Under the pieces are notes generated by a model. The model had not been told where the DNA came from, searched no databases, and saw nothing but the letters and a program-made list of their open reading frames with translations. Position numbers and translations under genes: made by a program. A stretch of DNA of 45,086 nucleotides. It comes from Patescibacteria group bacterium. GTDB lineage: Bacteria; Patescibacteriota; Microgenomatia; Levybacterales; UBA12049. The stretch lies in NCBI GenBank assembly GCA_035646815.1, contig DASRON010000025.1:1-45086 (forward strand), in the 5' to 3' direction. Positions 9,663 through 43,516 of the stretch are shown here, piece after piece; the first letter of the stretch is position 1; every line of letters begins with the position of its first letter.

Positions 9663-10994
9663 ATGGCAGTAGCAGCAAAAACTCTCCCTCATAACGAAGA
9701 TGCAGAAGAAAGTGTATTGGGCGCAATTCTTATTGATAAAGATGCAGTAGGAACAGTTTCGGAAATAATATCTTCTCGTGATTTTTATAACGGTGTAAAC
9801 AGCATTATTTATGATGCAATGCTTTCTTTATATGAACAGAGTAAACCAATAGACGTAGTTACTCTAACTTCTCAACTTAAAAAAAATAAAACTTATGAAA
9901 AAGTAAAATCAGCTTATTTAGCAGAGTTAATTGAATCTGTTCCTACTGCAGCAAATGTTGCGCATTATGCAAACATTATTAAAGAAACTTCAATAAAAAG
10001 ATCGTTAATTAGAATGGGGGGAGACATTGCAGAGCTTGCATTTTCAGACGATAAAGAAATAAGTGAAATTATAGATAAAGCAGAGGCATCTGTTTTTTCT
10101 GTATCTCAAGGGCAGAATTTAAAAACATTTATTCCAATAAAGGAAGCGTTAGCAGGGAGCTTTGATCGAATTGATGAACTTCATAAAAAGGGTCAGGGGT
10201 TAAGAGGTGTAAAAACTGGATTTACAGATCTTGACAATCTTTTATCAGGATTTCAGGCTTCAAATTTAGTTATTCTTGCTGCAAGACCTGGTCAGGGAAA
10301 AACAGCAATGGTTGTAAATATGGCACAAAATATTGCGGTTACTGAAAAAAAACCAGTTGGAATTTTTTCTTTGGAAATGAGCCAAGAAGAACTCGTTGAC
10401 AGACTTTTAGTAGGTCAAGCTGACGTTGATGCCTGGAGACTTAAAACTGGTAAGCTTTCTGAAACTGATTTTACAAAGCTTTCTAACGCAATGGGAGTTC
10501 TTGCAGATGCTCCAATATTTATTGATGATACTCCGGGTATAACAATATCTGAAATGCGAACAAAAGCAAGAAGGCTTCAGCTTGAACATAATGTGTCTCT
10601 TTTAATTGTTGATTATCTTCAGCTTGCAGACCCAGGAAGACACTATGATAGTCGTGTTCAGGAAGTTTCTATGATTTCTCAATCTTTAAAAAAGCTTGCA
10701 AGAGAATTAAAAATTCCTATACTTGCAGTTTCTCAGTTGTCTCGTGCAGTTGAGCATAGAGGAGAAAAAAAACCTCAACTTGCTGACTTAAGAGAATCTG
10801 GAGCAATAGAACAAGATGCAGATGTAGTTATGTTTTTATATAGACCTGATTCGGAAACTTTTTCAAATGTTATGCAAACAAAATTACTTGTTGCAAAGCA
10901 CAGAAATGGACCTGTTGGGGAAATTGATTTACTTTTCCGTGGAGATAGGATAAAATTTTATAATGCGGAAACTAAAAGAGAAGGAGGTGATTAA
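9663..10994 (+). CDS. dnaB: replicative DNA helicase DnaB
   Basis: N-terminal PHNEDAEESVLGAIL, Walker A ARPGQGKT, and QLSRAVE / RESGAIEQDAD motifs. Confidence 0.92.
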   Translation: MAVAAKTLPHNEDAEESVLGAILIDKDAVGTVSEIISSRDFYNGVNSIIYDAMLSLYEQSKPIDVVTLTSQLKKNKTYEKVKSAYLAELIESVPTAANVAHYANIIKETSIKRSLIRMGGDIAELAFSDDKEISEIIDKAEASVFSVSQGQNLKTFIPIKEALAGSFDRIDELHKKGQGLRGVKTGFTDLDNLLSGFQASNLVILAARPGQGKTAMVVNMAQNIAVTEKKPVGIFSLEMSQEELVDRLLVGQADVDAWRLKTGKLSETDFTKLSNAMGVLADAPIFIDDTPGITISEMRTKARRLQLEHNVSLLIVDYLQLADPGRHYDSRVQEVSMISQSLKKLARELKIPILAVSQLSRAVEHRGEKKPQLADLRESGAIEQDADVVMFLYRPDSETFSNVMQTKLLVAKHRNGPVGEIDLLFRGDRIKFYNAETKREGGD

Positions 10995-14323: not shown

Positions 14324-14410
14324 TGGTGCCGAGGGAGGGATTCGAACCCTCACGAGTTTAAAGCTCACGGGTTTTTGAGACCCGCGTGTCTACCATTCCA
14401 CCACCTCGGC
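14324..14410 (-). tRNA. tRNA-Leu (anticodon CAA), type II with long variable arm, CCA encoded
   Basis: The reverse complement reads GCCGAGG TG GTGG...CGGGT CTCAAAA ACCCG, then an 18-nt variable arm, then GGGTTCGAATCCC TCCCTCGGC ACCA. Length is 87 nt. Confidence 0.9.
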
Positions 14411-19906: not shown

Positions 19907-20743
19907 ATGATGAGAAATAAAAGACTACCCATGATCGGTTCATTTTTTTTAAGTGTTCTTTCACTTGAGAGATTCTTATTAAGTAAAAGACAAAAGCTAG
20001 TCTTATCAGTAATACTTCTTTCCATAGGACTTTTTACTTCGGAATATTTTTTGGGAAAATCTGGAATTTATATTATTTTTATTATTTCATTACTAACTGA
20101 TCTTTTCTTGTACTTTTCCTTAAGAGGTGATTTAAAGAATAATTTTAGACCGCAAATTTTTATTCTCCCTTTTTTCTACAGTCTTGCTTTTGGATTGTTT
20201 TATTTTTTAGTACCAGTAAGAATGCTAACAAGAATTATTATGACAAGTCTTTACATGATTGGCTTATATTCGCTTTTTTTAAGTGAAAATATTTTTACAG
20301 TTTCTTCTATGAGAACAATAGCACTTTTATCTGGAGCAAGAACAGTTGCTCTTACAATAACTCTTATTTCTTTTTTCTTTCTCTCAAACGTTGTATTTAC
20401 GTTGCATTTAAACGTTTTTATAACTCTTATAATTATTTTTACCTACACACTTCCGCTTGTTTTGCATTCCTTATGGAGTCATACTCTTGAAAAAAGTTTA
20501 TTATCTGAGATGATTTGGTCACTCTTTTTAACAGTTTGTCTTTTTGAACTTTCAATTATGCTTTGGTTCTGGCCAAGCACACCAACTTTGATTGCGCTAT
20601 TTCTAACTGGTGTTTTCTACAGTTTAATCGGACTTTCTCAAGCTTGGTTTGATAAGAAATTATTCAAGGCTGTAATTTGGGAGTATTTATTAGTTTCAAT
20701 TATAGTATTTATTGCATTAGTTATTTACACATCATGGGTTTAA
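19907..20743 (+). CDS. polytopic membrane protein (hypothetical)
   Basis: 278 aa with about 8 hydrophobic segments. Confidence 0.55.
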   Translation: MMRNKRLPMIGSFFLSVLSLERFLLSKRQKLVLSVILLSIGLFTSEYFLGKSGIYIIFIISLLTDLFLYFSLRGDLKNNFRPQIFILPFFYSLAFGLFYFLVPVRMLTRIIMTSLYMIGLYSLFLSENIFTVSSMRTIALLSGARTVALTITLISFFFLSNVVFTLHLNVFITLIIIFTYTLPLVLHSLWSHTLEKSLLSEMIWSLFLTVCLFELSIMLWFWPSTPTLIALFLTGVFYSLIGLSQAWFDKKLFKAVIWEYLLVSIIVFIALVIYTSWV

Positions 20744-20819
20744 TAAAATAGACTAGGGAAGTGACGGCACTACAAAAGGATACCTCAGAAAATAATTAAA
20801 TATAATAAATTGTAAAATT

Positions 20820-20831
20820 TAGCCTCAAATT
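20820..20831. repeat. left copy of a 12-bp long-range inverted repeat (TAGCCTCAAATT)
   Basis: Exact reverse complement of 21591-21602 (AATTTGAGGCTA). Confidence 0.7.
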
Positions 20832-20929
20832 AATAAGTTTTAAACAAGCAAAGCCTAAAAAAAACAAAGGATAAGAGAAGAGGGAAGAGAAGAGGGGAAA
20901 GAAAAAAACATAAGGAGCACCGAAATAGG

Positions 20930-20948
20930 TGATATAGTTTGATATAGT
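20930..20948. repeat. direct repeat TGATATAGT x2 with 10-bp phasing
   Basis: Copies at 20930-20938 and 20940-20948. Confidence 0.6.
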
Positions 20949-21171
20949 AATAGAAATGATTATTATAGGACATTATTACTAATATTTTTATTGTGGATAA
21001 CTTGTTTTCACGACATTCTATGAAGTATTTTCACAGATAAGAACAAGCAATGCTTCTTCCTATCGGGAATAGCGACGTATATTACTTAGCTTGGGAACAT
21101 ATCTCTGTCGAAAAAAATACGAATGCTCTTTTCCGGGGATAGTAGCAATAAAAACAGAATACTTTTGAGGC

Positions 21172-21213
21172 TAAAAACACTAGTTTAGATTGTTAAATCA
21201 ATCTAAACTAGTG
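21172..21213 (-). terminator. Rho-independent terminator (minus strand)
   Basis: Perfect 14-bp stem CACTAGTTTAGATT (21178-21191) / AATCTAAACTAGTG (21200-21213) with an 8-nt loop. On the minus strand it is followed by TTTTT (21177-21173). There is no T-run on the plus side. Confidence 0.6.
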
Positions 21214-21405
21214 CATTGTAAAGATCTAGGAGAAGAAGGTATACATGCACGTCTAAAGATGTAAAAACTTATTCTAGATCAAATAGAAGAGGACAAAGCT
21301 TCTTTACTTAGTTTATATATTTTAGTTGTTATTATCCTCCAAGAGGAACTAAGTAAAAAATCATACATTTTAGCAATGGGAAGCTTTAAGTGGTTATGTC
21401 GCACA

Positions 21406-21426
21406 ATAATACTTTTACGACGTCAG
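21406..21426. repeat. left copy of the ~20-bp inverted repeat paired with 24794-24813
   Basis: The reverse complement CTGACGTCGTAAAAGTATTAT matches CTGACGTCGCAAAATATTAT at 19 positions, with 1 mismatch and a 1-nt indel. Confidence 0.65.
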
Positions 21427-21590
21427 TCAGGCTCGGTTCCGGGAGAAGTGGTTGTTTTGTATGTGTCTAAAAATTAAAATATTAATACTTTTTTACTGTA
21501 TACATTCTCTCTTTTGTTAATTTCCCTTTGTTTTATCCTCCTGTATTTTTATATTACCTCCCCTACTATGGGTTTGATTAATTTTGTAAA

Positions 21591-21612
21591 AATTTGAGGC
21601 TATCTGAGGCTA
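21591..21612. repeat. right copy of the 12-bp inverted repeat plus tandem TGAGGCTA x2 (10-bp phasing)
   Basis: AATTTGAGGCTA (21591-21602); TGAGGCTA at 21595-21602 and 21605-21612. A further TTGAGGCTA lies at 21165-21173. Confidence 0.65.
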
Positions 21613-21616
21613 ATAT

Positions 21617-22348
21617 TTATATAATTATTGGTCTTCTCCGAGGCTGGAGCGAAGGCTTGTCTCTTATTGTTCCTTTAGATACTATAGATGCTTGAAGTGT
21701 TTCCGTGAATTCAGTTTTAGTTACTGGAATTGTTACCATAACTCCTCCTTTGTTGGTAAATTCTTCTTGAGATTTGCTTGATCGATTAAGTGAGTCTTTT
21801 GGAGTGATTACAACATAGCCTAGTGCTGAGTCATGATAATGCTGAATTAAAGGTTTGGAAATATTACTTATTCTTGTAGTTTTGAGAGCTTCTACAAATG
21901 AATGTCCTAATTTTACCTCCCAAATTACAGGGAGACCACAAACTAGAGTGAGAGCATCATATTCTATATGCGCAGCACCAGTTCTTTTATTATGCGCAAT
22001 GTAATTGTGACCATATTGTCTAAAAACATAATCTTCTGTTTCAGTGCCGCTTGGGATAGGATTAACTATTAGATCGGGATGTTCTAAGGAGAGCATTTTT
22101 AATGTTAATGAAACATGCGTTTCAGCAAGCTGTCCTAGCGTGTCACCATTTTTACTTCCATTTGTTTTGTTTTCCTTCATTCTTGTAAGTTGTTTTCCAC
22201 TAAGTGTTTTTAAAAGTGCATTCCAGTTAGGAGTTGTACTACTGAGTCCTTTGATGATGGTAGCTAATCGTGGATTTGTAGTAAGTACAACTTCAGGAGA
22301 TCCTTTTTCAATTTTTCTATGTCGTCCAGGTGCGTGTGATTCATGCAT
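21617..22348 (-). CDS. hypothetical protein with PD-(D/E)xK nuclease-like motif
   Basis: 243 aa with no TM or signal peptide. E76 (GQLAETHV), D131 (IEYDALTLV) and E144-V-K146 (VIWEVKLG) have the order and spacing of restriction-endonuclease-like folds. Confidence 0.45.
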   Translation of the reverse strand: MHESHAPGRHRKIEKGSPEVVLTTNPRLATIIKGLSSTTPNWNALLKTLSGKQLTRMKENKTNGSKNGDTLGQLAETHVSLTLKMLSLEHPDLIVNPIPSGTETEDYVFRQYGHNYIAHNKRTGAAHIEYDALTLVCGLPVIWEVKLGHSFVEALKTTRISNISKPLIQHYHDSALGYVVITPKDSLNRSSKSQEEFTNKGGVMVTIPVTKTEFTETLQASIVSKGTIRDKPSLQPRRRPIII

Positions 22349-22393
22349 AAATTCTTAAAGAAATTTGGGGCAGAAAATATTTACTTATGTTAA

Positions 22394-22423
22394 GTTATAA
22401 CATTAAAACTTTATAAGCGTCAA
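22394..22423 (-). promoter_or_regulatory. own promoter of the nuclease-like gene
   Basis: On the minus strand: TTGACG (22423-22418), 18-nt spacer, TGtTATAAC (-10 at 22399-22394). Confidence 0.5.
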
Positions 22424-22443
22424 TAAGAAACTATAGATTGAAA

Positions 22444-23133
22444 TTACCCGCTAGGTTTTTTACCCGCTTCATTTTTGCAATCATTTGCTTTAATATCGCA
22501 TTTATTCTGACAGGTTGGATCGTCTCTAAAGATTATTGGGCATTCACTTATTCCAGGATCTGTATACTCTATACATTTTTTACTTGGTGTACAAGCAAAA
22601 AGGCTATATTGTGGGCAGCTGTCGTTTATTGGCATATTAGTACTTGAAATGCCAAAGTTATAGTTACAACTTTTTCCGCATCCTTTTCTACAGCCAATAA
22701 AATCTATGTTCTTGTCATTAGTGTTTTGTAAATCAACTAATACCTTATACCAGCTTGGACATTCTACGATTCCATTTTTTTCCTTATTTCTACTGTCATG
22801 AGGATCTTTACTGATTAATTCATATCCATAGGGTTTATTGCCATCAAGGCAAGGAAATTTTTGAATATACGTAACATTGCCTTTTTTAAGTGGCATTCCG
22901 CATTCAGGAAATTCCTTGGGGTAGCATTTCATGTCATCATAATACTGATCAAAGGCATTTCTTATTTCAATTAGATTGCTTTTAATTTTTGCGTCATTTG
23001 CTTTTGTTATTTGAGAACTTATTCCAATATATCCTGCAGTGCTAAGAATTGCTAAAATAGAGATAGAGATAAGCATCTCTATAAGAAGTGAACCCCTCCT
23101 TAATCCTTTAACAAGCTTTTTATTCCTTGCCAT
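22444..23133 (-). CDS. orphan type IV pilin-like protein with Cys-rich C-terminal extension
   Basis: Prepilin-like leader MARNKKLVKGLRRG|SLLIEMLISISILAIL with Glu at +5. ANDAKIKSNLIEIRNAFDQYYDD and CNYNFGISS parallel the pilin-like gene at 44272. It has 14 Cys. Confidence 0.65.
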   Translation of the reverse strand: MARNKKLVKGLRRGSLLIEMLISISILAILSTAGYIGISSQITKANDAKIKSNLIEIRNAFDQYYDDMKCYPKEFPECGMPLKKGNVTYIQKFPCLDGNKPYGYELISKDPHDSRNKEKNGIVECPSWYKVLVDLQNTNDKNIDFIGCRKGCGKSCNYNFGISSTNMPINDSCPQYSLFACTPSKKCIEYTDPGISECPIIFRDDPTCQNKCDIKANDCKNEAGKKPSG

Positions 23134-23178
23134 ATACCTATTATGCTCTCATATCTTTAAGAGTAAGGTCAAATCTTA

Positions 23179-23207
23179 TTGACATAGCATAAATTTTAGT
23201 TTAAATT
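23179..23207 (+). promoter_or_regulatory. promoter of the CAP-domain gene
   Basis: TTGACA (23179-23184), 17-nt spacer, TAAATT (23202-23207). ATG 23214 is 6 nt downstream. Confidence 0.5.
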
Positions 23208-23213
23208 TGTGCT

Positions 23214-23888
23214 ATGGCTAGCATAATTGTTTTATTTTTGCTTTTGTTTTTTCCTAGCTTAGAAACTCAAGTAAATAAATTGTTTACTGAGGTTAAAATT
23301 CCAGAAAATAAAGTAGTAGTATATAATCTTAGTCCAACTCCACTGCCAACTCCAATAAAGCCAACGATAGTAGTTAAGAAAAATATAAAAAAGATAAATG
23401 ATGTAAATAAGGATCCTGCTGTAAGTAATAAAAAAGATCAAGAAGATTCTTGGGGTGTGTCAAAGCAAATATCAGAGCACACTTGGACTATGAAGGTTGG
23501 AAATGATCAGGAAATGGCGGGATCTCAAGAAATAATGAATGCGTTAAACAATTACAGAAACGTACATGGTAAGGGTATACTTTCCTGGAATGATGGTCTT
23601 GCAAGTTTTGCTAAAAGTAGAGCTGAACAATTTAATAAAGATGGAAAGCTAGATGAACATGCAGGTTTTAACAGTTATTTTGGAGATCCTGAAAATATTC
23701 GCAAAACAGGATTTATGAAAGTAGGAGAAAATTCCTCTGTTGGATATAAGATGGATGGAGTTCATATAATTGAATGGGTATTTGCAGGAGATGCTCCTCA
23801 TGATAATAATCAACTTGATTTATCTTGGAGTGCTGTTGGCATAGGAGTAAGTGGAGCAGCTGTAGATATTATATTTGGTGGTAATTAA
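23214..23888 (+). CDS. secreted/anchored CAP (SCP/PR-1, YkwD-like) domain protein
   Basis: N-terminal hydrophobic segment, Pro-rich linker, then NALNNYRNVHGKGILSWNDGLASFAKSRAEQ...GENSS...IEWVFAGDAPHDNN, typical of CAP domains. Confidence 0.65.
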   Translation: MASIIVLFLLLFFPSLETQVNKLFTEVKIPENKVVVYNLSPTPLPTPIKPTIVVKKNIKKINDVNKDPAVSNKKDQEDSWGVSKQISEHTWTMKVGNDQEMAGSQEIMNALNNYRNVHGKGILSWNDGLASFAKSRAEQFNKDGKLDEHAGFNSYFGDPENIRKTGFMKVGENSSVGYKMDGVHIIEWVFAGDAPHDNNQLDLSWSAVGIGVSGAAVDIIFGGN

Positions 23889-23922
23889 TATAGGGTTGTA
23901 ATCTGTTCTGTGAAAAGAATTA

Positions 23923-24717
23923 CTATGGGGTAACTAAATTTATTGGTACAGAATTATCTCCGTTAGGGTCTGATAATAATCCTTCAGTTTTAATATGGTT
24001 TTCTGTAAATTTACTTCTGCTTAAAAAGACATTTTGTTCTGTTCCATCTTTCATAACTGCAATTAGTCTGAACCAAGATCCTCCTGGGAAATTTTTGGAA
24101 ACTGGATCAAATCCGTCTACTAATTTGAAAGTTCCTGATATTTGAAATGAATTCATGTTATGGATATATGTTTCAGGAGATTTACTATCTGGTTTTAAAG
24201 CCATGATATTGTCCCAATCTACTTCGGTAGATTCTCTTTTAGACTTTTCTGGAATATCAGGTTTAAATCTTACAGCCAGCTTAACTCCATTCTCAGTCTT
24301 GATAGTTATTCCTAATGTTCCGTTAAAGATTTTATTTGCCCTGACATTCTCTGCTTGAGTAGCGACTACTTGCTCTACTGTGGTTGTAGTCTTATCTGGA
24401 GCATATTTTCCAAGATTATACTCAGCATCAATTGCTTGCCCAATTTCATGAACTCCTAGTGTTGCAGCAGCTGCGACAGCAATAGTTCCTATTGCTGTCT
24501 TCTTTAAAGCTTTTGGATGCTGTAAAGTTTTTTCAATTATTCTATGAGAAAGAGGTCTTCTGCTAACTGTAGAGTTTGTACCTTTGGTATCTCTTTCTCT
24601 TCTTCGTTTTTGCCATCTTGCATGTCTTTCAATTCCATCTTTATCAATTTCTTTTTTTGATTCAATACTACGTACTGATGCAGATGGTCCTTCGGGAGGA
24701 ATATTTGATTCAGGCAT
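23923..24717 (-). CDS. type II membrane protein of unknown function
   Basis: Strongly basic N-terminal ~85 aa, one TM (TAIGTIAVAAAATLGV), then a ~170-aa external domain. ATG 24717 is preferred over the track's TTG 24735. Confidence 0.5.
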   Translation of the reverse strand: MPESNIPPEGPSASVRSIESKKEIDKDGIERHARWQKRRRERDTKGTNSTVSRRPLSHRIIEKTLQHPKALKKTAIGTIAVAAAATLGVHEIGQAIDAEYNLGKYAPDKTTTTVEQVVATQAENVRANKIFNGTLGITIKTENGVKLAVRFKPDIPEKSKRESTEVDWDNIMALKPDSKSPETYIHNMNSFQISGTFKLVDGFDPVSKNFPGGSWFRLIAVMKDGTEQNVFLSRSKFTENHIKTEGLLSDPNGDNSVPINLVTP

Positions 24718-24726
24718 AATAATTAT

Positions 24727-24756
24727 AGTATGCAATGTTTAGCCTTATTTTGTCAA
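24727..24756 (-). promoter_or_regulatory. promoter of the 24717 gene
   Basis: On the minus strand: TTGACA (24756-24751), 18-nt spacer, CATACT (24732-24727). Confidence 0.4.
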
Positions 24757-24760
24757 GAGT

Positions 24761-24789
24761 TTGACAACTCTGACTAATTTGTCTACTAT
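24761..24789 (+). promoter_or_regulatory. consensus promoter of the tyrosine recombinase gene
   Basis: TTGACA (24761-24766), 17-nt spacer, TACTAT (24784-24789). The track's TTG start at 24761 is actually the -35 box. Confidence 0.55.
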
Positions 24790-24793
24790 TATT

Positions 24794-24813
24794 CTGACGT
24801 CGCAAAATATTAT
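24794..24813. repeat. right copy of the ~20-bp inverted repeat; candidate recombinase core site
   Basis: CTGACGTCGCAAAATATTAT lies between the promoter and the ATG (24812) of the recombinase gene. Arms TACTATTATTC and GCAAAATATTA are 8/11 complementary around TGACGTC. Confidence 0.55.
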
Positions 24814-25753
24814 GAAAGGAACACTGCCCGAATTAATTAATCAATTCCTAGAGTATCTTGAAATTGAAAAGAATTGTTCTAAATTAACAATTCGTGATTA
24901 TAGGCATTATCTTGAAGTGTTTGATAAATGGCTTACCACTACCCTACCGGATAAGAATATTAAAGATTTAGATTTACAAATTGTTAGAAAATACCGCGTT
25001 TTTTTGGCAAATAGAGAAAATGATAAGGGAATGACTCTAAAAAGAGTTACACAAAATTACTATGTTATTGCCTTAAGATCATTTCTTAGGTTTTTAATTA
25101 AAAATGATTATGATACTCTGGAGCCTTCAAAGATTGATCTTCCCAAAACAGAAAGCAGATCTTTAAAGTTTTTAGAAAGAGAACAGGTTGATCGTTTGGT
25201 AACCGCAACAGATACTTCAAAAGAAGAAGGATTAAGAGACAGAGCAATGCTAGAATTACTTTTTTCTACTGGTCTTCGTGTTTCAGAGTTGGTTAGTTTA
25301 AATAAGGATAGGATAAATTTAGAAAGAAAAGAATTTGGAATAATTGGAAAAGGAGGAAAATCAAGAATAGTTTTTGTTTCAGAAAGAGCAGCAGAATGGA
25401 TAAAAAGATATCTTAATAAAAGAGAAGATATTTTTAAACCTTTATTTATTAGGTATTCAGGAAAGGTAATTGAAGACAATGGTGGTGAGAAAATGAGGCT
25501 TACAGCAAGAAGCGTTGAGAGAATGGTTAAGAAATATGTAAGAGCAGCAAGGATTCCTGTTGATGCAACGGTTCATACCTTAAGACATTCATTTGCAACA
25601 GATTTACTTACAAACGGAGCTGATATAAGGTCTGTTCAGGATATGCTGGGACATAAAAATATTGCAACAACTCAGATCTATACCCATGTAACAAATAAAC
25701 AATTAAGAGAAGTTCATAAGAATTTTCATAGTGGAAATAAAAGTAAGAATTAA
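24812..25753 (+). CDS. XerC/XerD-family tyrosine recombinase
   Basis: N-terminal SAM-like domain (LINQFLEYLEIEKNCSKLTIRDY). Catalytic motifs LFSTGLRVSEL, HTLRHSFATDLL and GHKNIATTQIYTHV. Confidence 0.85.
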   Translation: MKGTLPELINQFLEYLEIEKNCSKLTIRDYRHYLEVFDKWLTTTLPDKNIKDLDLQIVRKYRVFLANRENDKGMTLKRVTQNYYVIALRSFLRFLIKNDYDTLEPSKIDLPKTESRSLKFLEREQVDRLVTATDTSKEEGLRDRAMLELLFSTGLRVSELVSLNKDRINLERKEFGIIGKGGKSRIVFVSERAAEWIKRYLNKREDIFKPLFIRYSGKVIEDNGGEKMRLTARSVERMVKKYVRAARIPVDATVHTLRHSFATDLLTNGADIRSVQDMLGHKNIATTQIYTHVTNKQLREVHKNFHSGNKSKN

Positions 25754-31932: not shown

Positions 31933-32787
31933 TTAAATAGAATAAACTAAATTTCTTAAAAGCATTACTACATTTACTGGTCCGACTCCACCAGGAACAG
32001 GAGTGTAGTAAGAAGCTATTTTTGCAATCTCTTCTTGATTATAATCAGGAGTGAGTTTTCCGTTTTTCTCTTTTCTCATGCCAATTCCAATTACTATTGC
32101 TCCTTTTTTTACTTCATTTGAAAAAATAACAGGTTTCCCAACAGTTGAGATTAGTATATCTGCAGACTTTACAATTTTTTCAGGATTTTTAGTTTTGCTG
32201 TCAATAACTTCTGCTTTGATTCTCATGTTATTAAATAAATTTATAACTGGTCTTCCTCCAGTGTCTCCTTTTCCAACAACTACAATTTTTTTAAGTTTTA
32301 ACCACTCGTAAGTATTAGTGCAAGAAAGCCCTTCTTCCTGAGATTTGTTTATTTGAATGTCTGAAAAAATAGTTTTCAAAATTTCTAAAACTGCTTCTGC
32401 AATCGGTTCTTTAAATTTTGAATTTTTTAAAAATCCGTCTACATCTTTTTCTGGTGTTACCATTTCTCTTGTTTTAATTTCATTTATTTGAGGAGGAAGT
32501 GGCCTTTGAATAATTACTCCGTGAACGTTTGAATCTTTATTTAGTTTTTCGACAAATTTTTCAAGTTTATCCTGAGAAAGAGTGTCTTCAAAATTATAAA
32601 TAGAAATTTTTGCCCCAATTACTTTTCCTTTTAATTTTTTTTGATTAACGTAAGCCTTTGAAGGATGGTCACTGCCTATTAAAATAATTGTTAAATGAGG
32701 AATTATTCCTTTCTTTTTTAAGTCTTTTACTTTTTCTTTAAGTTCCTTGAGGACATTTTCTGCTATTTTATTTCCATCAATCTTCAT
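31933..32787 (-). CDS. folD: bifunctional methylenetetrahydrofolate dehydrogenase/cyclohydrolase
   Basis: [15 protein letters not shown]..., VIIQRPLP and [19 protein letters not shown] 32787 (MKIDGNK) is preferred; the track start 32811 extends further into gyrA. Confidence 0.85.
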
Positions 32788-35281
32788 TTTCAAGATAAGT
32801 TGCTGCTGCAATATTATCGTTTTCTTTTGAAAAACGCATTAAGATTACTCCTTGAGTATCTCTTGAAAGTTTTGGAACAGAGCTTGTATTAAGTTTTACA
32901 ATTTGTCCTTTTTCAGAAGTGATAATTATTTCCTTGCAACTATCTGGAACTACTTGGGAAAAAGCTACTTTTCCAGTTTTCTCAGTTACTTTTGCAACTT
33001 TTGCTCCTTGCCCTCCCCTGCCTTGCCCTCTAAAGAGTTTTGATGAAGTTTTTTTGCCTAGTCCGTTTTTCATTATTGTCATAAGCTCAACTTCTTTTTT
33101 CGCTTCAATTACATCCATGCCTATTACAATATCATCATCATTTAATTTTATACCTCTAACTCCCATGGTTGCTCTTCCCATTGATCTTACCGAATTTCCT
33201 GAAAATCTAATTGCTTTCCCGTTTTTCGTAGTAAGAATAATGTCGTTATCTCCAGCTGTAAGCTTACTCCAGGCAAGTTCATCTCCTTTGTTTAATTTTA
33301 TTGCTAAAATTCCCGTTTTTCTAATATTTGCAAATTCAGAGAGTTTAGTTTTTTTAACAGTTCCTTTTATTGTTGTTAAAAACACATAAATTCCTTTTTC
33401 ATCTTTTCTATATGTTATGAAAGATTCAACTTTTTCATCAGACTCAATATTTAAAAGATTAACAATTGCAGTTCCTTTTGATGTTCTTTGAGATTCATTT
33501 ATTTCAAAAGCTCTTAACTGATAAACTTTTCCTTTATTGGTAAAGAATAATAAATTGTCATGAGTTTGTGCAGAACGAATAAGAGCAATGCTATCTTCGT
33601 CTTTTGTTGTCATTCCCTTAATTCCCTTTCCTCCTCTATGCTGAGTTTTAAAGCTAGCTATGCTTTGTCTCTTAATATAACCTGTGGTGGTAAGAGTTAT
33701 AACTGTTGGTTCATTTTGAATAAGATCTTCTTCAGAAAATTCATCAACTTTGCTTTTATAAACTTTAGTTCTTCTTTCGTCGCCATACTTTTTTCTTAAA
33801 GAAGTTAATTCCTCCTTTATGATAACAAGAATTTTTTCAGGATGTGCTAAAAGATCTTCAAGATAAGCAATTGTTTCTTTAACCATTTGATATTCATCTT
33901 CAATTTTTTGTCTTTCTAAAGCTGCAAGCCTTCTTAGTTGCATGTCTAAAATTGCAGTTGCCTGAAGTTCTGAGAGCTTGAATTTAGCGATTAAATTCTT
34001 CTTTGCGTCATCTTGAGTTTTAGAAGCTCTTATTGTTTTGATTACAGCATCAATATTATCAACGGCAATTTTTAAACCTTCTAAAATATGAAGTCTTGCT
34101 TTTGCCTGTCTTAATTCAAACTCAGATCTTCTTTTAACAACTAAATAACGGTGTTTTAAAAATTCTTCTAAAATTGTTTTAAGGTTTAAAGTTTGAGGTG
34201 TGCCGTCAACAAGGGCTACGATATTTGCTGAAAAAGTTGTTTGAAGTGCTGTATATTTAAATAGATTATTTAAGATTTTTTTAGGCGAACTATCTCTTTT
34301 TAGCTCAACTACAACTCTTGTTCCTTGTCTATCAGATTCATCTCTTAAATCAGAAATTCCTTCAATTTTTTTATCCTTTGCAAGTCCTGCAATTCTTGCA
34401 ACTAGAAGCGCTTTATTCACTTGATAAGGAAGCTCAGTAATAATAATTGCTGATTTGCCTTGTCCTATTTCTTCAATTTCAGCTTTTCCACGAATTAAAA
34501 TTCTTCCTCTTCCAGTTGTGTATACATTTTTTATTTCTTCAAAATCATAAATTGCTCCCGCAGTTGGGAAATCTGGTCCTTTAATATATTTTAAAAGTTC
34601 GTCAATTCCTACTTCTGAAATAATTTCTGGAACATCAGAAGTCTTACTTACTTCAAATTTAGTTTTTTGAATAACAAAGGTGAGGGCATCAATAACCTCA
34701 GTTAGATTATGTGGAGGTATTTTTGTAGCCATTCCAACAGCTATTCCCTCAGACCCCATAAGTAGTAGATTCGGCAAAAGACTTGGCAAAAAGACTGGTT
34801 CTTTTAAAGTAGCATCAAAATTATCTAAGTAGTCTACAGTTTCTTTATCAAGATCTAAAAGCATTTCATTTGAGATTGATGCCATTCTTGCTTCGGTATA
34901 ACGCATGTGTGCAGGTGGATCACCATCCATTGAACCAAAATTACCTTGACCATCTATTAATGGGTAGCGCATGGAAAAATGTTGTGCCATTCTAACAAGT
35001 GAGTCATAAATAGGAATATCTCCATGAGGATGATACTTACCCATAACTTCTCCGACAATTTTTGCAGATTTTGAGAATTTTGCTTGATGCGTGAGATTTA
35101 ATTCATGCATCGCATAAAGAATTCTTCTATGAACTGGTTTTAGTCCGTCTCTTACATCAGGGAGCGCACGAGAGACTATAACAGACATTGCGTAATCAAG
35201 ATACGCTTTTTTCATCTCTGTTGTTATCTCGGTTTGTTCGAGTCTCCCTATTTTATTTTTTTCTGATTTATCTTCAACCAT
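32777..35281 (-). CDS. gyrA: DNA gyrase subunit A
   Basis: [24 protein letters not shown], the active-site region HPHGD and a C-terminal beta-pinwheel. 834 aa. Confidence 0.95.
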
Positions 35282-35359
35282 AATTTATAAATTCAAGTTT
35301 ATTAAAAAACAAAAAATATATATTACCTTTACTGCTTAATACTTAAGTAGGGGCAGGTA

Positions 35360-35872
35360 TTATTTAATTGCTTTTTCAACTTCTACCAATGCTTCTTTTT
35401 TCCCTTTCCAATTTTTAATCTTAACCCACTTATCTTTTTCAAGAGTTTTATAATTTTCAAAAAAATGTTTAATTTTATTTTTTGTAGCCTCTGGAACGTC
35501 AGAGATATCACTATATTCTCCAAAGAGTGGGTCTATTTTCTTATCTGGTACTGCAACTATCTTAGTATCATTACCAGCTTCATCCTCCATTTCTAGAAAT
35601 CCAATAACCCTAGAAGGTATTACAGTTCCAGGAGCAACACTTTGATCTCCAAGCACTATGACATCAAGTGGATCTCCATCGTCTGCAAGTGTATTTGCTA
35701 TAAAGCCGTAATTAAAAGGGAAATTCATAGCAGTATGTAAGAACCTATCAACAAAAATTATGCCAGTGTCTTTATCGAGTTCGTATTTAATATTACTGTC
35801 TTTAGGAATCTCTATAAAAACATTTACTTCTTCAGGTGGGTTTTTTCCTACTGCGAGTTTTTTAATATCCAC
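35360..35872 (-). CDS. ppa: inorganic pyrophosphatase (family I)
   Basis: IEIPKDSNIKYELDKDTG and DGDPLDVIVL motifs. 170 aa. Confidence 0.9.
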   Translation of the reverse strand: MDIKKLAVGKNPPEEVNVFIEIPKDSNIKYELDKDTGIIFVDRFLHTAMNFPFNYGFIANTLADDGDPLDVIVLGDQSVAPGTVIPSRVIGFLEMEDEAGNDTKIVAVPDKKIDPLFGEYSDISDVPEATKNKIKHFFENYKTLEKDKWVKIKNWKGKKEALVEVEKAIK

Positions 35873-35917
35873 TATTTCTTCACCTCCATTTTTTTATAAT
35901 TATTCTTATTCATAATT

Positions 35918-37873
<1,956 letters not shown>

Positions 37874-37951
37874 TTATCTATATTAACAGAAAACAAATTA
37901 TTTTTAAAGTCTTGACATTTGGAGAAATGCTATCTAATTATTCCCCTTTTT

Positions 37952-38062
37952 TTATAAATATTTGTATTTTTTACTTATTTTATTGTTATGCATAAGCAGT
38001 AAGCCAAAGAGTATCATCGAACCTGAAAGAACAAAGAAAATAATAAAAGGAGTTTTTTCCAT
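37952..38062 (-). CDS. possible 36-aa single-TM peptide downstream of holB (not in the track)
   Basis: MEKTPFIIFFVLSGSMILFGLLLMHNNKISKKYKYL. TGaTATAAT lies 6 nt upstream of the ATG. Confidence 0.25.
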   Translation of the reverse strand: MEKTPFIIFFVLSGSMILFGLLLMHNNKISKKYKYL

Positions 38063-38083
38063 TATGAGATTATATCAAGCTTT

Positions 38084-38731
38084 TTATATTGAAATAAAGA
38101 GGCTTTCAAGCCCTAGACGAAGATTTGCATTGCTGTTTTTAAGTTCAATATATCGTTTTTGAATAAGCTTAATTGATTTTTGACTATTTAAATCCTTTTC
38201 TTTTAACATTATTTCTCTTGCACCTAAGATTATTTTTTGAAGATATAAAAGTGCTTGCTCTTTATCTTTTGCAAGACTTTCTGCAAGTTTCAGTTTTTCT
38301 CCCTGAGAAAATTTTATAAACTTATTAAATTCTTTTTCATAATCTTCATGCTCTTTTATTGAAATTGAAACTTTATGATTTAATTCAATAATTTTACATC
38401 TTGAAAGAACAGTTGGAAGAACAAGTTCTTTACTTGGGATAATAAGCGCAATAATAGTATTTGCAGGAGGTTCTTCAAGAATTTTTAAAAGAGCATTTTG
38501 TGCTTCAGCAGTAATTCCTTTTTCTGCATTAAGTATGGTTATTTTCTGTTTACCCTTAAAAGGTTTTAAAAGTGTTTTTTCCTGAAGAATTCGAATATCT
38601 TTTATTCCTATTTGTTTTTCACTTTCAATAATTAATGTGTCAAACTCCCCTATTTTCTCATTAAGACTGAGTTTTTTTACATAATCCAAAGCGTCTTGGT
38701 TTTTATTTGAAGAAATTAATATTGATTGCAT
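38084..38731 (-). CDS. holB: DNA polymerase III delta' subunit (short form)
   Basis: ITILNAEKGITAEAQNALLKILEEPPANTIIALI and TVLSRC motifs. ATG 38731 is preferred; the track's 38860 start would run through the pilB promoter. Confidence 0.75.
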   Translation of the reverse strand: MQSILISSNKNQDALDYVKKLSLNEKIGEFDTLIIESEKQIGIKDIRILQEKTLLKPFKGKQKITILNAEKGITAEAQNALLKILEEPPANTIIALIIPSKELVLPTVLSRCKIIELNHKVSISIKEHEDYEKEFNKFIKFSQGEKLKLAESLAKDKEQALLYLQKIILGAREIMLKEKDLNSQKSIKLIQKRYIELKNSNANLRLGLESLFISI

Positions 38732-38765
38732 GAGTTGAAAGTTAAATTTTACTAACTTTGCCTGA

Positions 38766-38774
38766 AGTATAGCA
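38766..38774 (-). promoter_or_regulatory. extended -10 promoter of holB
   Basis: The minus strand reads TGCTATACT, 34 nt upstream of ATG 38731. Confidence 0.4.
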
Positions 38775-38802
38775 CAAAGAGAATATTTTAAGGCTATACT
38801 TG

Positions 38803-38832
38803 TTGACATTTTAGCTTGTTTACACGTACTAT
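38803..38832 (+). promoter_or_regulatory. promoter of the type IV pilus operon
   Basis: TTGACA (38803-38808), 18-nt spacer, TACTAT (38827-38832). ATG 38840 is 7 nt downstream. Confidence 0.55.
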
Positions 38833-38839
38833 TATAGTA

Positions 38840-40567
38840 ATGCCCAATGATACCAAACAACAGTCAAAAGAGGACCAATCAGTTGCTGATATTCTTTTAG
38901 GTCAGCATTTAATTACTCCGGAGCAAAATCAAGAAATTAAGGTTAAAAGTGCAAGTCAAGGCATAAATGATGTAGCTGCGATTGAGCAAATGAATATCGT
39001 AGGAGAGGAAAAGCTTGCAGAAGCAAAAGCGCTTCGAATGGGTATTCCTTTTATTTCACTTGAAAATACTTCTTTTTCTCCACAAGCATTAGGTTTTATC
39101 CCAAGAGCAGTAGTTGAGAGATTTCAATTAATTCCTTTTGGATATGATGAAAAAAGCAAGGTTATTTCCGTTGCCATGAGTAATCCTGTTGATCTTGAAG
39201 CGATTTCATTTGTTCAGCAAAAAACTGGACTTAATGTTAAAACTTTTGCAGCATCTGCAGCTGATGTTAAAAGAGCAATCCAGCTTCAATATAGGCAGGA
39301 AATTGTTGGTCAGGTTGGCGAAGCGTTAAAAGAAACAGAAGAGTTTAATAAAGCACGTACTATAGATAGTAGTGATATTGGAAAAATTATAAAAGAAGCT
39401 CCAATTGCAAAAATTGTTTCAACTATTCTTGAGTACGCAGTAACAAGTAGAGCTTCAGATGTTCATATTGAACCCCAGGAAGACAGAGTTAGAGTAAGGT
39501 ATAGAATTGATGGAATTCTTTATGACCGTCTTAGTCTTCCCAAGTCAGTTCAGGAAGCAGTTATTTCAAGAATTAAGATTTTATCTGAAATGAAAATAGA
39601 TGAACATAGGTCTCCTCAGGATGGAAGATTTAATTTTAAAGTTGAAAATAAAGAAGTTGATCTTCGTATCTCAGTGCTTCCTACAGTTTTTGGAGAAAAA
39701 ATAGTAATGAGACTTTTAAGAAAATCAGGAGGCCTCCCTACTTTAAATGAGTTAGGGCTTACTGGAAATTCATTAAGAAACTTAGAAGCATCTATTTTAA
39801 GACCGCACGGAATAATTACTGTTTGTGGTCCGACAGGATCAGGAAAAACAACAACTTTGTATTCAATTTTGGCAAAATTAAATACAACAAGAGTTAATAT
39901 AATGACTTTAGAAGATCCAGTTGAGTATCAAATTCCCGGTATTAATCAGGTTCAAATTAATCCTGCTGTAGGCCTTACATTTGCAACAGGACTTAGATCA
40001 TTTCTAAGGCAAGACCCAAACATTATATTAGTAGGAGAAATTAGAGATGAAGAGACAACAGATCTTGCAATTCAAGCAGCTTTAACAGGACATTTAGTTT
40101 TTTCAACACTTCATACATCAAGTGCTTCTGGTGCGCTACCCCGTTTAACTGACTTAGGAGCAGAAACATTTTTGCTTGCTTCAACAATGACAGCAATACT
40201 TGCTCAAAGAATTGTTAGAAAAATATGTGAGCATTGTAAGGTTTCATATAATCCCCAACCCCAGATATTAGAAGAGATTAAAAATGCATTAGGAAATCTT
40301 TTTCAAGAAAGTAAACAAGCACTTCTTTACAAGGGAAAGGGATGTACTGAATGTGGAGGAACAGGCTATATGGGAAGAGTTGGTATTTTTGAAACTTTGC
40401 CTATTTCTGAAAAAATATCATCTTTGATACTGCAAAACGCTGATAGTAATACAATTGAAAAAGAGGCTATTTTAGAAGGTATGATTACCATGAAAAGAGA
40501 CGGTTATTTAAAAGCATTAGAAGGGTTAACGACAATAGAGGAAGTTATTAGAGTTGCCCAGGACTAA
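38840..40567 (+). CDS. pilB: type IV pilus assembly ATPase PilB (GspE family)
   Basis: N-terminal GSPII_E_N-like domain, Walker A GPTGSGKTTT, and a tetracysteine motif CEHC...CTECGGTGY. Confidence 0.9.
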   Translation: MPNDTKQQSKEDQSVADILLGQHLITPEQNQEIKVKSASQGINDVAAIEQMNIVGEEKLAEAKALRMGIPFISLENTSFSPQALGFIPRAVVERFQLIPFGYDEKSKVISVAMSNPVDLEAISFVQQKTGLNVKTFAASAADVKRAIQLQYRQEIVGQVGEALKETEEFNKARTIDSSDIGKIIKEAPIAKIVSTILEYAVTSRASDVHIEPQEDRVRVRYRIDGILYDRLSLPKSVQEAVISRIKILSEMKIDEHRSPQDGRFNFKVENKEVDLRISVLPTVFGEKIVMRLLRKSGGLPTLNELGLTGNSLRNLEASILRPHGIITVCGPTGSGKTTTLYSILAKLNTTRVNIMTLEDPVEYQIPGINQVQINPAVGLTFATGLRSFLRQDPNIILVGEIRDEETTDLAIQAALTGHLVFSTLHTSSASGALPRLTDLGAETFLLASTMTAILAQRIVRKICEHCKVSYNPQPQILEEIKNALGNLFQESKQALLYKGKGCTECGGTGYMGRVGIFETLPISEKISSLILQNADSNTIEKEAILEGMITMKRDGYLKALEGLTTIEEVIRVAQD

Positions 40568-40570
40568 ATT

Positions 40571-41638: not shown

Positions 41639-41642
41639 ATAA

Positions 41643-42848: not shown

Positions 42849-42883
42849 AGATGGTAAAGTTACGATAGCTTTAGATTAGGGGC

Positions 42884-42913
42884 TTGACAAGATATTTTGA
42901 ATATGGTTATTAT
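42884..42913 (+). promoter_or_regulatory. internal strong promoter in front of the major pilin gene
   Basis: TTGACA (42884-42889), 18-nt spacer, TATTAT (42908-42913). ATG 42924 is 10 nt downstream. Confidence 0.5.
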
Positions 42914-42923
42914 AAATACATAC

Positions 42924-43505: not shown

Positions 43506-43516
43506 TTAGTTAATAA

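Follow-up and report, generated by a model that had tools for sequence, protein, structure and literature searches.

In streptococci and lactococci (XerS/difSL) and in Helicobacter (XerH/difH), the recombinase gene adjoins its own conserved site, which is formed by two imperfect inverted arms and is inherited with the chromosome. Bacterial dif sites are normally located at the replication terminus. In the case of plasmid cer/psi sites and lambda attP, accessory sequences around the core build a defined synapse. Bacterial and archaeal dif sites have been defined as imperfect inverted repeats of 11 bp separated by a 6-bp spacer, which are conserved, intergenic and unique, and the conserved flanks of dif in Thermococcales have been proposed as partner-binding sites (PMC2958812).

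We describe here a locus found in a 45,086-nucleotide stretch of Patescibacteria (CPR) DNA, hereafter the window, which is best read as a new variant of the single-recombinase Xer/dif modules, probably devoted to Xer recombination and its regulation at the DNA level. As in XerS/difSL and XerH/difH, an Xer-family gene lies next to what appears to be its own short two-arm site, and the pair is inherited chromosomally. In contrast to these systems, the site lies 0.3-5.5 kb upstream of the gene instead of being immediately adjacent to it, it is placed inside 0.6-2 kb of conserved non-coding DNA containing DnaA boxes and phased arrays, one of its arms is reused in the recombinase promoter, and the locus is without a skew switch. 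The 28-bp site has the 11-6-11 layout of XerCD/dif and archaeal XerA/dif, and in reverse orientation it matches at 19 of 28 positions what we take to be the proteobacterial dif consensus. One core arm is better conserved than the other, like the XerD arm, and the site is surrounded by conserved flanks, like dif of Thermococcales. However, a terminus position is unsupported here and the protein scores below the NCBIfam equivalog cut-offs for both XerC and XerD. With cer/psi and lambda attP the locus shares a short core with oriented, helically phased words (putative protein-binding sites) on both sides, but, at about 800 bp, the region greatly exceeds them in length; it is a chromosomal, apparently single-copy and non-mobile locus, and the words GARGCTA, TATAGG and TTTTCAC are new. 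Finally, like E. coli datA/DARS and the B. subtilis DBCs, it is intergenic and combines a consensus box with weaker ones on a single helical face, outside any skew switch; unlike them, it has three putative boxes only, which are linked with a recombinase site and with a promoter-like element.

The spacer is non-coding and conserved

The region and its two neighbours are arranged as follows.

19907-20743, plus strand: DUF5656 membrane-protein gene, left neighbour of the spacer
20744-21616, no strand assigned: conserved non-coding region (the spacer), between the DUF5656 gene and the first cargo gene
21617-22348, minus strand: first cargo gene, right neighbour of the spacer

With 873 bp, the spacer is the largest gap of the window, as compared with 342 bp for the next one and a median of 22 bp. 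The ORFs listed inside it encode 47 and 41 aa, with no others. The six frames contain 15-30 stops each, and since all three stop types are present in every frame, no frame is rescued by an alternative genetic code, which was thus ruled out. A Pfam scan of the six frames gave no match. A sequence-only reading of this DNA had described the interval as free of ORFs, and this was borne out; the recognisable decayed gene which would have spoken against that reading was not found, the empty six-frame scan and the three stop types of each frame ruling it out. The same reading had proposed a search for conservation in relatives, which proved positive: blocks of the spacer are kept in relatives whose flanking protein is just 30-85% identical, and a 22-mer at 21399-21420 recurs in at least 119 contigs.

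The DUF5656 gene (plus strand) was found upstream of this conserved sequence in 64 of the 65 loci with enough sequence, and the recombinase gene downstream of it, on the same strand, in 24 of the 25 loci for which 6 kb or more was available. The synteny is also kept in more distant CPR genomes. The identities of the DUF5656 protein and of the recombinase correlate (r = 0.92), indicating co-inheritance of both flanking proteins. A non-autonomous, MITE-like mobile element was rejected on the basis of one copy per contig, one syntenic position and the lack of a second spacer copy within the window. The decayed mobile element suggested earlier falls for the same reasons, its place being fixed in more than 100 genomes.

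A dif-like site within the spacer

21396-21423, plus strand: 28-bp dif-like core, made of the ATGTCGCACAA arm, a TAATAC centre and the TTTTACGACGT arm (11+6+11 layout)

The two arms form an imperfect inverted repeat with 8 of 11 positions complementary, and the conserved 22-mer is the centre of the 28-bp site. Its exact matches in the metagenome contigs occur once each and are intergenic every time; none was found in viral contigs. The full core is present as a single copy in the 45-kb window, with one match per retrieved stretch. The site hardly varies in more than 100 genomes; among the loci compared, arm variation is concentrated at the outer arm positions. The diverged forms in loci L126 and L130 retain the 11-6-11 layout. 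In L126 the left arm is identical, while the centre and the right arm have changed independently; one of these changes disrupts a would-be hairpin pair without a compensating change. In layout, conservation and intergenic position, and by the presence of an Xer-family gene, the site can thus be regarded as a candidate dif. A position at the replication terminus was not found for the core, on flanks of 7-24 kb.

Other assignments of the core were considered. A small ORF starting at its ATG was rejected, because ACG or TTG replaces this codon in many relatives and third positions are invariant. A sigma-70 promoter was dropped by eye, the upstream -35 element being absent, and parS was dropped because the resemblance, judged by eye, was to a half-site only. 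A literature search for the sequence and for Xer/dif in CPR returned nothing relevant.

The recombinase and its promoter

24750-24811, plus strand: predicted recombinase promoter, consisting of the palindrome TTGTCAAgagTTTGACAA, TTGACA (24761-24766), 17 bp, TACTAT (24784-24789) and the half-site ACGTCGCAAAA (24797-24807), before the ATG at 24812
24812-25753, plus strand: Xer-family tyrosine recombinase, 313 aa, with Pfam domains Phage_integrase and SAM_1

The recombinase scored 262 bits against NCBIfam XerD (cut-off 330) and reached the cut-off of XerA_Arch (222.8 bits; cut-off 220). Its scores were far under the NCBIfam integron-integrase cut-offs. The closest relatives in the PDB are XerD (1A0P) and XerA, and the best 120 database matches are all at least 81% identical. 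The recombinase is under strong purifying selection. In one lineage, an intein is located within the catalytic motif; inteins are found mostly in essential housekeeping genes.

One arm of the core is found again, by itself, as a half-site in the promoter of the recombinase gene, over its -10/start region. Outside the core, the arm motif is nearly always located 0-125 bp upstream of the recombinase start, and all 33 matches are in forward orientation. In many loci the promoter half-site overlaps the -10 hexamer. An inverted-repeat cassette spanning 21406-24813 had been proposed; its second copy turned out to be this single promoter arm (24797-24807), and neither inversions nor breakpoints were detected.

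The interval from the conserved region to the recombinase gene contains 0-5 kb of genes that vary among relatives; their products are a pilin-like protein, one with a CAP domain and unknown proteins. The cargo of the window differs from that of L004 by simple indels. Gene order and strand are alike across loci; we saw no breakpoints at the core in close locus pairs, no inverted variants of the site or the cargo among the loci, and no repeated sites between cargo genes. An invertible cassette or shufflon was rejected, as the second element is a single promoter arm, order and strand are constant and close pairs are without breakpoints. An integron was rejected on account of the missing repeats between cargo genes, the indel differences and the low integron-integrase scores of the protein, and inversion or integration at the core on account of the intact flanks and the same indels.

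Conserved words around the core

The core is accompanied by a series of conserved words on both sides.

20818-20829, minus strand: inverted GARGCTA copy TTTAGCCTCAAA
20874-20899, plus strand: purine-rich block GAGAAGAGGGAAGAGAAGAGGGG, 70-90% conserved in 37 relatives
20930-20948, plus strand: two tandem TGATATAGT words, 10 bp apart, 90-100% conserved
20962-20971, plus strand: ATTATAGGAC word of the TATAGG family (TATAAT on the minus strand), conserved in relatives
20992-21000, minus strand: consensus DnaA box TTATCCACA (TGTGGATAA on the plus strand), by sequence match
21004-21035, plus strand: two TTTTCAC boxes, GTTTTCACG and ATTTTCACA, 23 bp apart
21110-21126, plus strand: GAAAAAAATACGAATGC block, about 99% conserved in the main group
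21163-21213, plus strand: direct GARGCTA copy TTTTGAGGCTAAAA, then the inverted repeat TTTAGATTGATTT...CTAAA, which in this genome forms a 15-bp stem without mismatch
21441-21460, plus strand: GGGAGAAGTGG block followed by a U-rich run, a terminator-like hairpin and T-run in part of the relatives
21557-21572, plus strand: CCTCCCCTACTATGGG block, at a fixed distance from the core (+152 to +168)
21593-21612, plus strand: two direct GARGCTA copies, TTTGAGGCTA and TCTGAGGCTA, 10 bp apart, at the right edge of the conserved region

The GARGCTA family is about 70-fold enriched and is fixed in position and orientation. In relatives, the inverted copies are concentrated at 450-700 bp on the upstream side of the core, frequently as tandems spaced 10/11 or 20/21 bp apart, and the direct copies are found at +150 to +250 from the core (52 copies, 72 loci). 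There are two copies of the unit formed by GARGCTA and TTTAGATTGATTT...CTAAA in L033 and L081, and in L126 this unit is found on the downstream side of the core. The distant loci L126 and L130 contain the purine-rich block too, and tandem TGATATAGT-type words occur in distant lineages as well; each of these words may be read as an extended -10 promoter element, TGnTATAGT. In several loci the ATTATAGGAC word occurs again, about 160 bp past the core. The order of the conserved modules changes from lineage to lineage.

The consensus DnaA box was found in 63 of 80 loci and is about 100-fold enriched relative to the flanking genome; at the position of TTATCCACA, L126 carries the accepted DnaA-box variant TTTTCCACA. 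The TTTTCAC boxes agree with the DnaA-box consensus TTWTNCACA at 7 and 8 of the 9 positions. Of 80 loci, 72 have the pair at a spacing of 22-23 bp; it is 32-fold enriched and orientation-specific. The consensus box and the two near-consensus boxes lie on one helical face, beside the TGnTATAGT element. The oriented and phased arrays, the enriched DnaA box with its functional variant in L126 and the changing module order argue that these flanks probably act as DNA.

Several repeats of the spacer had been pointed out from its sequence. The 12-bp inverted repeat 20820-20831/21591-21602 is real and is a member of the GARGCTA family. The phased 8-9-mers were also recovered, as the two TGATATAGT words (20930-20948) and as two GAGGCTA copies 10 bp apart (21596-21612). 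The 10-bp inverted repeat 20861-20870/21525-21534 lies at the coordinates given for it, but it is at chance level (about 1.6 expected by our estimate) and its sequence is poorly conserved. The stem at 21178-21213 is indeed perfect, with 15 bp instead of 14, but only its outer TTTAG...CTAAA is kept in relatives. The stems formed by 21300-21313/21347-21360 and by the 7-bp GATCTAG are present but lineage-specific. The direct segments of about 28 nt recur in the closest relative, L004; the first of them, however, lacks wider conservation.

Position relative to replication

Pooled over about 120 loci, GC3 skew (plus-strand coordinates) was +0.139 to the left and +0.102 to the right of the site, on flanks of about 7 kb; in the window it was +0.153 and +0.131, on flanks of 21 and 24 kb. 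AT3 skew also has the same sign left and right, and because both skews do so the core is not located at a detectable replication terminus, on flanks that span only 7-24 kb and would leave a farther switch unseen. Extension of the contig to the right in search of a skew switch gained about 670 bp. As GC3 skew does not switch at the site, the latter is probably neither a canonical terminus dif nor oriC. The skew minimum and diverging genes of an oriC were not observed, the skew being of the same sign and the genes convergent. No conserved DnaA-trio array was seen at the spacer, where AT-rich repeats are present.

Tests for RNA structure

The tests for RNA structure of the spacer were weak or negative. 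At gathering thresholds, Rfam gave no match in the spacer and only tRNAs in the window; at E up to 10, the window gave chance-level matches only, and the spacers of 12 homologous loci gave nothing; the spacer thus matched no curated model of a large structured RNA, among them OLE, GOLLD, ROOL, HEARO, tmRNA, RNase P and 6S. RNAalifold returned no consensus structure. A long helix that would close the spacer by pairing its purine-rich left end with its pyrimidine-rich right end was rejected, being neither conserved nor strand-specific: the closing-arm duplex had a z of about -1.2 to -1.5, equal on both strands, and is absent in many relatives. The helix around the core had a covariation score of 0.170, as compared with 0.128 for shuffles, and its outer helix is paired in just 58% of cells. 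A hairpin after block C was discarded for its weak potential. The large structured RNA closed by nested helices, which had been put forward from the sequence alone, thus finds no support in the Rfam and RNAalifold results, in the weak complementarity of the arms or in the variable module order.

Measured against shuffles, the minimum free energy of the spacer had a z of -6.4 on the plus strand versus -3.8 on the minus strand. A plus-strand terminator-like site follows the core in 42 of 101 loci, about 25 of them at +53 to +82. The GGGAGAAGTGG hairpin is weak in the window (-8.4 kcal/mol) and was missed by a stricter terminator scan. A plus-strand transcript may overlap the spacer.

Alternative explanations

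The difference in z between strands would fit a plus-strand non-coding RNA of about 0.25-0.55 kb, running from TGnTATAGT (about 20946) to the hairpin and U-run (about 21460), whose 22-mer would be an exposed loop or seed regulating or guiding the recombinase. Some of the terminator-like hairpins at +53 to +82 pair with the right-arm flank; in L050, L059, L070 and L108 a nearby inverted copy forms a hairpin with the right arm, and covariation is seen in the distal stem; at the second arm position, fewer (C,A) combinations occur than expected (2, against about 7); and the 5' region of the recombinase in the window is complementary to the loop and 3' stem with one mismatch and one bulge. We nevertheless consider such an RNA rather unlikely. 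No Rfam family and no RNAalifold consensus was obtained, the outer core helix is paired in a little over half of the cells, the hairpin potential after block C is weak, the L126 stem pair is broken without compensation and the modules change order. Furthermore, the promoter half-site is mostly upstream of the transcription start and has the same sense as the core arm, so that pairing between RNAs cannot be the general rule. The plus-strand z, the terminator-like hairpins and the covarying hairpin of one clade still make transcription through the site, or some role of RNA, conceivable. In a combined scheme, a promoter under DnaA control would fire across the chromosome's only Xer site, so that the site is transcribed or a functional RNA of about 0.5 kb is made. 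Recombination or recombinase expression would then depend on the replication state or be guided by the 22-mer RNA. This appears quite unlikely to us; we know of no Xer system with such a coupling of DnaA, transcription and Xer site.

The spacer might also serve chiefly in replication control, as a chromosomal origin or as a DnaA-titrating cluster of the datA/DBC type, with the Xer site merely neighbouring. Such a role would account for one consensus and two near-consensus DnaA boxes that are strongly enriched and conserved, including the swap from TTATCCACA to TTTTCCACA, for the AT-rich phased repeats that adjoin them and for a neighbourhood rich in dnaB, gyrA, gyrB and holB. It is very unlikely, however, in view of GC3 skew that is positive on both sides and therefore without an origin-type switch, of genes that converge on the spacer and do not diverge from it, of just one perfect DnaA box, and of the absence from the window of any unaccounted ORF of dnaA size (judged by ORF lengths and Pfam, with part of the short ORFs scanned); moreover, it leaves the invariant 28-bp site and the promoter half-site unexplained. 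Highly improbable, in our opinion, is an integron-like or IMEX-like attachment or integration platform for the variable genes, or one end of an invertible cassette, even though relative-specific genes (0-5 kb) separate the region from the recombinase and the far end of the cargo is marked by an arm-like repeat. This repeat is a single arm that is present in the promoter even without cargo, the cargo begins about 200 bp past the core and not at its centre, and no repeated sites separate its genes. In addition, the window and L004 are related by plain indels, close pairs lack core breakpoints and the recombinase strand is constant across loci.

A model for the locus

We consider it moderately probable that the spacer is a DNA-level control region, vertically inherited in Levybacteria/Microgenomates-type CPR and built around the putative site of the downstream recombinase. 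The sequence-only reading is partly supported: of its three explanations, the fixed arm of a recombination system comes closest, since the spacer does contain a full 28-bp core, but the inverted-repeat cassette attached to it found no support.

In the proposed mechanism, the recombinase would bind both arms and swap strands across TAATAC. As each chromosome presumably carries a single full site, the most plausible outcome would be the resolution of sister-chromosome dimers or other multimers. Since the site is not at a skew switch, recombination may work without FtsK, perhaps as with XerA. The recombinase would repress its own promoter via the half-site. The flanking words (GARGCTA arrays on both sides, TATAGG words, purine blocks, the DnaA box with its two near-consensus boxes, and TGnTATAGT) would serve as promoters or as binding sites for proteins; they would build the complex or control it and link it with the state of replication. 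Gain and loss at an ordinary hotspot would explain the variable genes found between the region and the recombinase, and these would not be cassettes moved by the site.

CPR/Patescibacteria represent a large uncultivated share of bacterial diversity, with tiny genomes and a chromosome maintenance that is barely known. The locus provides a concrete candidate for a CPR Xer site: its 28-bp sequence is invariant, a cognate recombinase and an operator that is likely autoregulatory go with it, and it is accompanied by unusually many conserved accessory words and by DnaA boxes. The 22-mer could be used as a metagenome marker for the clade, and recombination assays could start from the site and recombinase as a compact candidate pair. 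Should the DnaA boxes cooperate with the site, replication control would be tied to site-specific recombination in a manner undescribed elsewhere.

Conservation of the locus

We lean towards reading the 873-bp gap between two converging genes (the spacer) as a conserved locus, present in single copy and acting at the DNA level, whose centrepiece is a dif-like site (the core) for the adjacent Xer-family recombinase. Such a locus would combine an operator half-site in the promoter of the recombinase gene, a cluster of DnaA boxes adjoining a promoter-like element in the spacer, and lineage-specific arrays of further binding words around the core. The features concerned are as follows.

19907-20743, plus strand: DUF5656 membrane protein gene, left flank of the spacer
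20744-21616: spacer, between converging genes
21396-21423: core, ATGTCGCACAA-TAATAC-TTTTACGACGT, with an invariant 22-mer as its middle part
21617-22348, minus strand: unknown 243-aa ORF, right flank of the spacer
22444-23133: type IV pilin-like protein gene, cargo
23214-23888: CAP-domain secreted protein gene, cargo
24797-24807: single arm ACGTCGCAAAA, just before the recombinase ATG
24812-25753, plus strand: Xer-family recombinase gene, Phage_integrase and SAM_1 domains

The spacer is the largest intergenic gap of the window, the runner-up measuring 342 bp and the median 22 bp. Its description as free of ORFs was borne out: the only ORFs inside are of 47 and 41 aa, each of the six frames contains 15-30 stops of all three kinds, and a six-frame scan revealed no Pfam domain. 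The repeats previously listed within it were also recovered in place. Elsewhere, a minus-strand tRNA gene (14327-14410) explains part of a 432-bp gap between the protein-coding ORFs at 14041 and 14473, leaving 285 bp before the tRNA gene.

A search with the DUF5656 protein retrieved a Candidatus Levyibacteriota genome (L004, 85% identity) and a second genome (L005, 66%), each of which has a comparably sized gap at this position. Alignment of the three spacers displayed long perfectly conserved blocks with indels between them, and three-base periodicity was not seen in this three-way comparison. The best conserved block is the 22-mer TCGCACAATAATACTTTTACGA (21399-21420). An exact-pattern search with it returned at least 119 metagenome stretches, with one match in each, and no viral contig carrying it was found. 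Loci were oriented on the 22-mer and their neighbours mapped by tblastn, which gave a fixed order: RluA, LytR_C protein, TPR protein (minus strand), YebC, DUF5656, spacer, 0-5 kb of variable genes, tyrosine recombinase (plus strand) and SIMPL (minus strand). DUF5656 lies upstream of the core in 64 of the 65 loci with enough sequence, and the recombinase follows the core, encoded on the same strand, in 24 of 25. The identities of these two proteins to their window counterparts are correlated (r = 0.92), matching the expectation for vertical co-inheritance. More distant CPR genomes, reached via a second protein search, keep TPR, YebC, DUF5656, a spacer of 1.4-2.1 kb and the recombinase, then gyrA, ppa, gyrB and holB.

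L072 is the sole locus with more than 6 kb downstream yet without a recombinase; its 22-mer has no proper arm flanks (AACT-TCGCAC...ACGA-TGC) and may be an unrelated or degenerate occurrence. The L005 contig (CAYIOB010000008.1) is labelled 'uncultured Gammaproteobacteria'; in gene order and proteins it matches the Levybacteria-type loci, and the bin is probably misassigned.

The core site and the recombinase

In the core, a 6-bp centre is flanked by two 11-bp arms that form an inverted repeat matching at 8 of 11 positions, the same layout as that which defines dif. Archaeal dif sites were searched for with this same set of features: imperfect inverted repeats of 11 bp separated by 6 bp, in a unique, conserved and intergenic sequence (PMC2958812). 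Among 113 distinct sequences, the core varies at the outermost arm positions. Two relatives carry diverged cores: in L126 the left arm is identical, two centre bases and two right-arm bases are changed, and one of these changes breaks a G-C pair of the would-be hairpin without compensation; in L130 one base is changed per arm. These diverged cores favour a predicted protein-binding site over an RNA stem.

The recombinase scores 262 bits against XerD and 254 bits against XerC, each under its equivalog cut-off, and 222.8 bits against the archaeal XerA model (cut-off 220); the nearest solved structures are XerD and XerA. Identity is 81% or higher throughout its 120 best database relatives, and the neighbouring gene diverges much faster. 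In the L018 locus the recombinase gene encodes 739 aa (+1060 to +3277 from the core, oriented coordinates), and an insertion of ~430 aa, starting with CLHPETRIF and ending with VSHN, splits the catalytic motif HVLRH / SFAT (H-x-L-R-H / S-F-A-T). This insertion resembles an intein that carries a homing-endonuclease domain; inteins occur mostly in essential, conserved genes.

The recombinase promoter

From the similarity of 21406-21428 to 24794-24813, the sequence-only reading had proposed an inverted-repeat cassette (21406-24813). The second 'repeat' proved to be a single arm in the recombinase promoter region, where a TTGTCAA...TTGACAA palindrome and the promoter hexamers TTGACA-17-TACTAT precede it. 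Copies of the arm motif other than those in the core lie almost solely 0-125 bp upstream of the recombinase start, there always forward (33 matches). Many genomes have the motif across the -10 hexamer of a TTGACA-17-CACAAT promoter, whose mRNA would be leaderless or have a short leader. All loci share one gene order and strand arrangement, close pairs of loci present no one-sided identity drop at the core, and the cargo of the window differs from that of L004 by two plain indels. In line with these observations, the promoter arm looks like an autoregulatory operator and not like a partner site for inversion, and the cassette was abandoned.

The palindrome TTGTCAAgagTTTGACAA (24750-24767), with a similar TTGTCAAtTTGACAA in L005, overlaps the -35 element of the window promoter and may be a second operator. 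Between spacer and recombinase, the window holds four cargo genes of variable presence (21617-24735), two of them unknowns besides the pilin-like and CAP-domain genes. L004 is without the 243-aa gene, 46 bp of its 3' end being kept, and L005 carries instead an HD-domain protein and another pilin-like gene.

Conserved words around the core

A conservation profile over 37 relatives, together with word counts over 72-80 loci, delimited the following modules.

Purine-rich block
TGATATAGT: two copies 10 bp apart, each reading as an extended -10 element
ATTATAGGAC
TGTGGATAA: consensus DnaA box, 63 of 80 loci, ~100-fold enriched
TTTTCAC box pair: 22-23 bp apart, single orientation, 72 of 80 loci, 32-fold enriched
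GAAAAAAATACGAATGC
GARGCTAAAA word, then TTTAGATTGATTT...CTAAA inverted repeat
GGGAGAAGTGG: downstream of the core
CCTCCCCTACTATGGG: downstream of the core, fixed at +152 to +168
GARGCTA pair: downstream of the core, 10 bp apart

The TTTTCAC boxes agree with 7-8 of the 9 bases in the DnaA consensus, and in L126 the DnaA box is swapped for the accepted variant TTTTCCACA. GARGCTA is ~70-fold enriched and follows a strict positional pattern, with inverted copies 450-700 bp upstream of the core (in some loci also one at +247) and direct copies 230-350 bp upstream as well as at +196 and +206. Tandem copies lie whole helical turns apart, at spacings of 10/11 or 20/21 bp. Module order differs by lineage: a divergent group has the TTTTCAC pair first and TTATAGG between both boxes, L126 has the GARGCTA-plus-hairpin unit downstream of the core, and L130 lacks GARGCTA altogether but retains the core, the boxes, the promoter arm and the TGATATAGT word. 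Words that are shuffled, oriented and helically phased bear the signature of candidate protein-binding DNA rather than of one folded RNA.

Transcripts and RNA structure

A large RNA closed by long helices, one of the suggestions for the spacer, was not supported. For the proposed closing helix the duplex z averages -1.2 (plus strand) and -1.5 (minus strand), and many relatives lack the helix. A transcript overlapping the spacer is kept as a live rival, if an unlikely one, and three observations speak for some transcription or structure. The window spacer folds with z = -6.4 on the plus strand and -3.8 on the minus strand; a plus-strand hairpin with a T-run follows the core in 42 of 101 loci, roughly 25 of which have it at +53 to +82; and in one clade (L050, L059, L070, L108; region +14 to +110 from the core) an inverted copy of the right arm comes 6-20 bp after it, forming a hairpin of 18-20 bp whose distal stem varies in sequence yet stays paired, with a further GC-rich hairpin and U-run in L050 and L059. 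Against this, the recommended Rfam comparison matched no family in this spacer or in those of 12 homologous loci, and RNAalifold on 110 sequences gave no plus-strand consensus structure. The hairpin surrounding the core has invariant inner pairs and an outer helix with 58% of cells paired; its covariation score is 0.170 versus 0.128 in shuffles (7 of 500 reach 0.170), a level often scored by unconstrained related sequences.

Replication context

Raw skew and the converging genes gave an initial hint of a terminus. We used third-codon-position skew, which separates gene strand from replication strand. For genes of either strand on either side of the locus, the plus strand is G-rich and T-rich, with a GC3 skew of +0.139 (left) and +0.102 (right) in pooled loci and +0.153 and +0.131 in the window. 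No switch was detected within ~7 kb (pooled loci) or ~20 kb (window), values merely weakening beyond 38 kb. With skew of the same sign on both sides, the locus is neither a detectable terminus nor an origin over the flanks covered, and the core was not classed as a canonical dif.

In the window, dnaB (9663-10994, plus strand) and gyrA, ppa, gyrB and holB (32777-38860, minus strand) all point toward the spacer; in L130 the gyrA-ppa-gyrB-holB block directly follows the recombinase. Judged by GC3 skew, replication would run head-on into transcription of the minus-strand gyrA/gyrB/holB block. A type IV pilus cluster (38816-44784) comprises two T2SSE ATPases, T2SSF, an N_methyl pilin, a T2SSG-like gene and a prepilin peptidase, the last identified through the near-identical contig L125. 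Two of the ORF calls, 38084-38860 and 38816-40567, share 45 bp.

The dnaB/gyrA/gyrB/holB neighbourhood and the DnaA boxes suggest a tie to replication control. The spacer locus would work in the manner of a single-recombinase Xer module to which accessory sequences have been added; lying away from any skew switch, and with such a size and DnaA boxes of its own, it would be a new variant.
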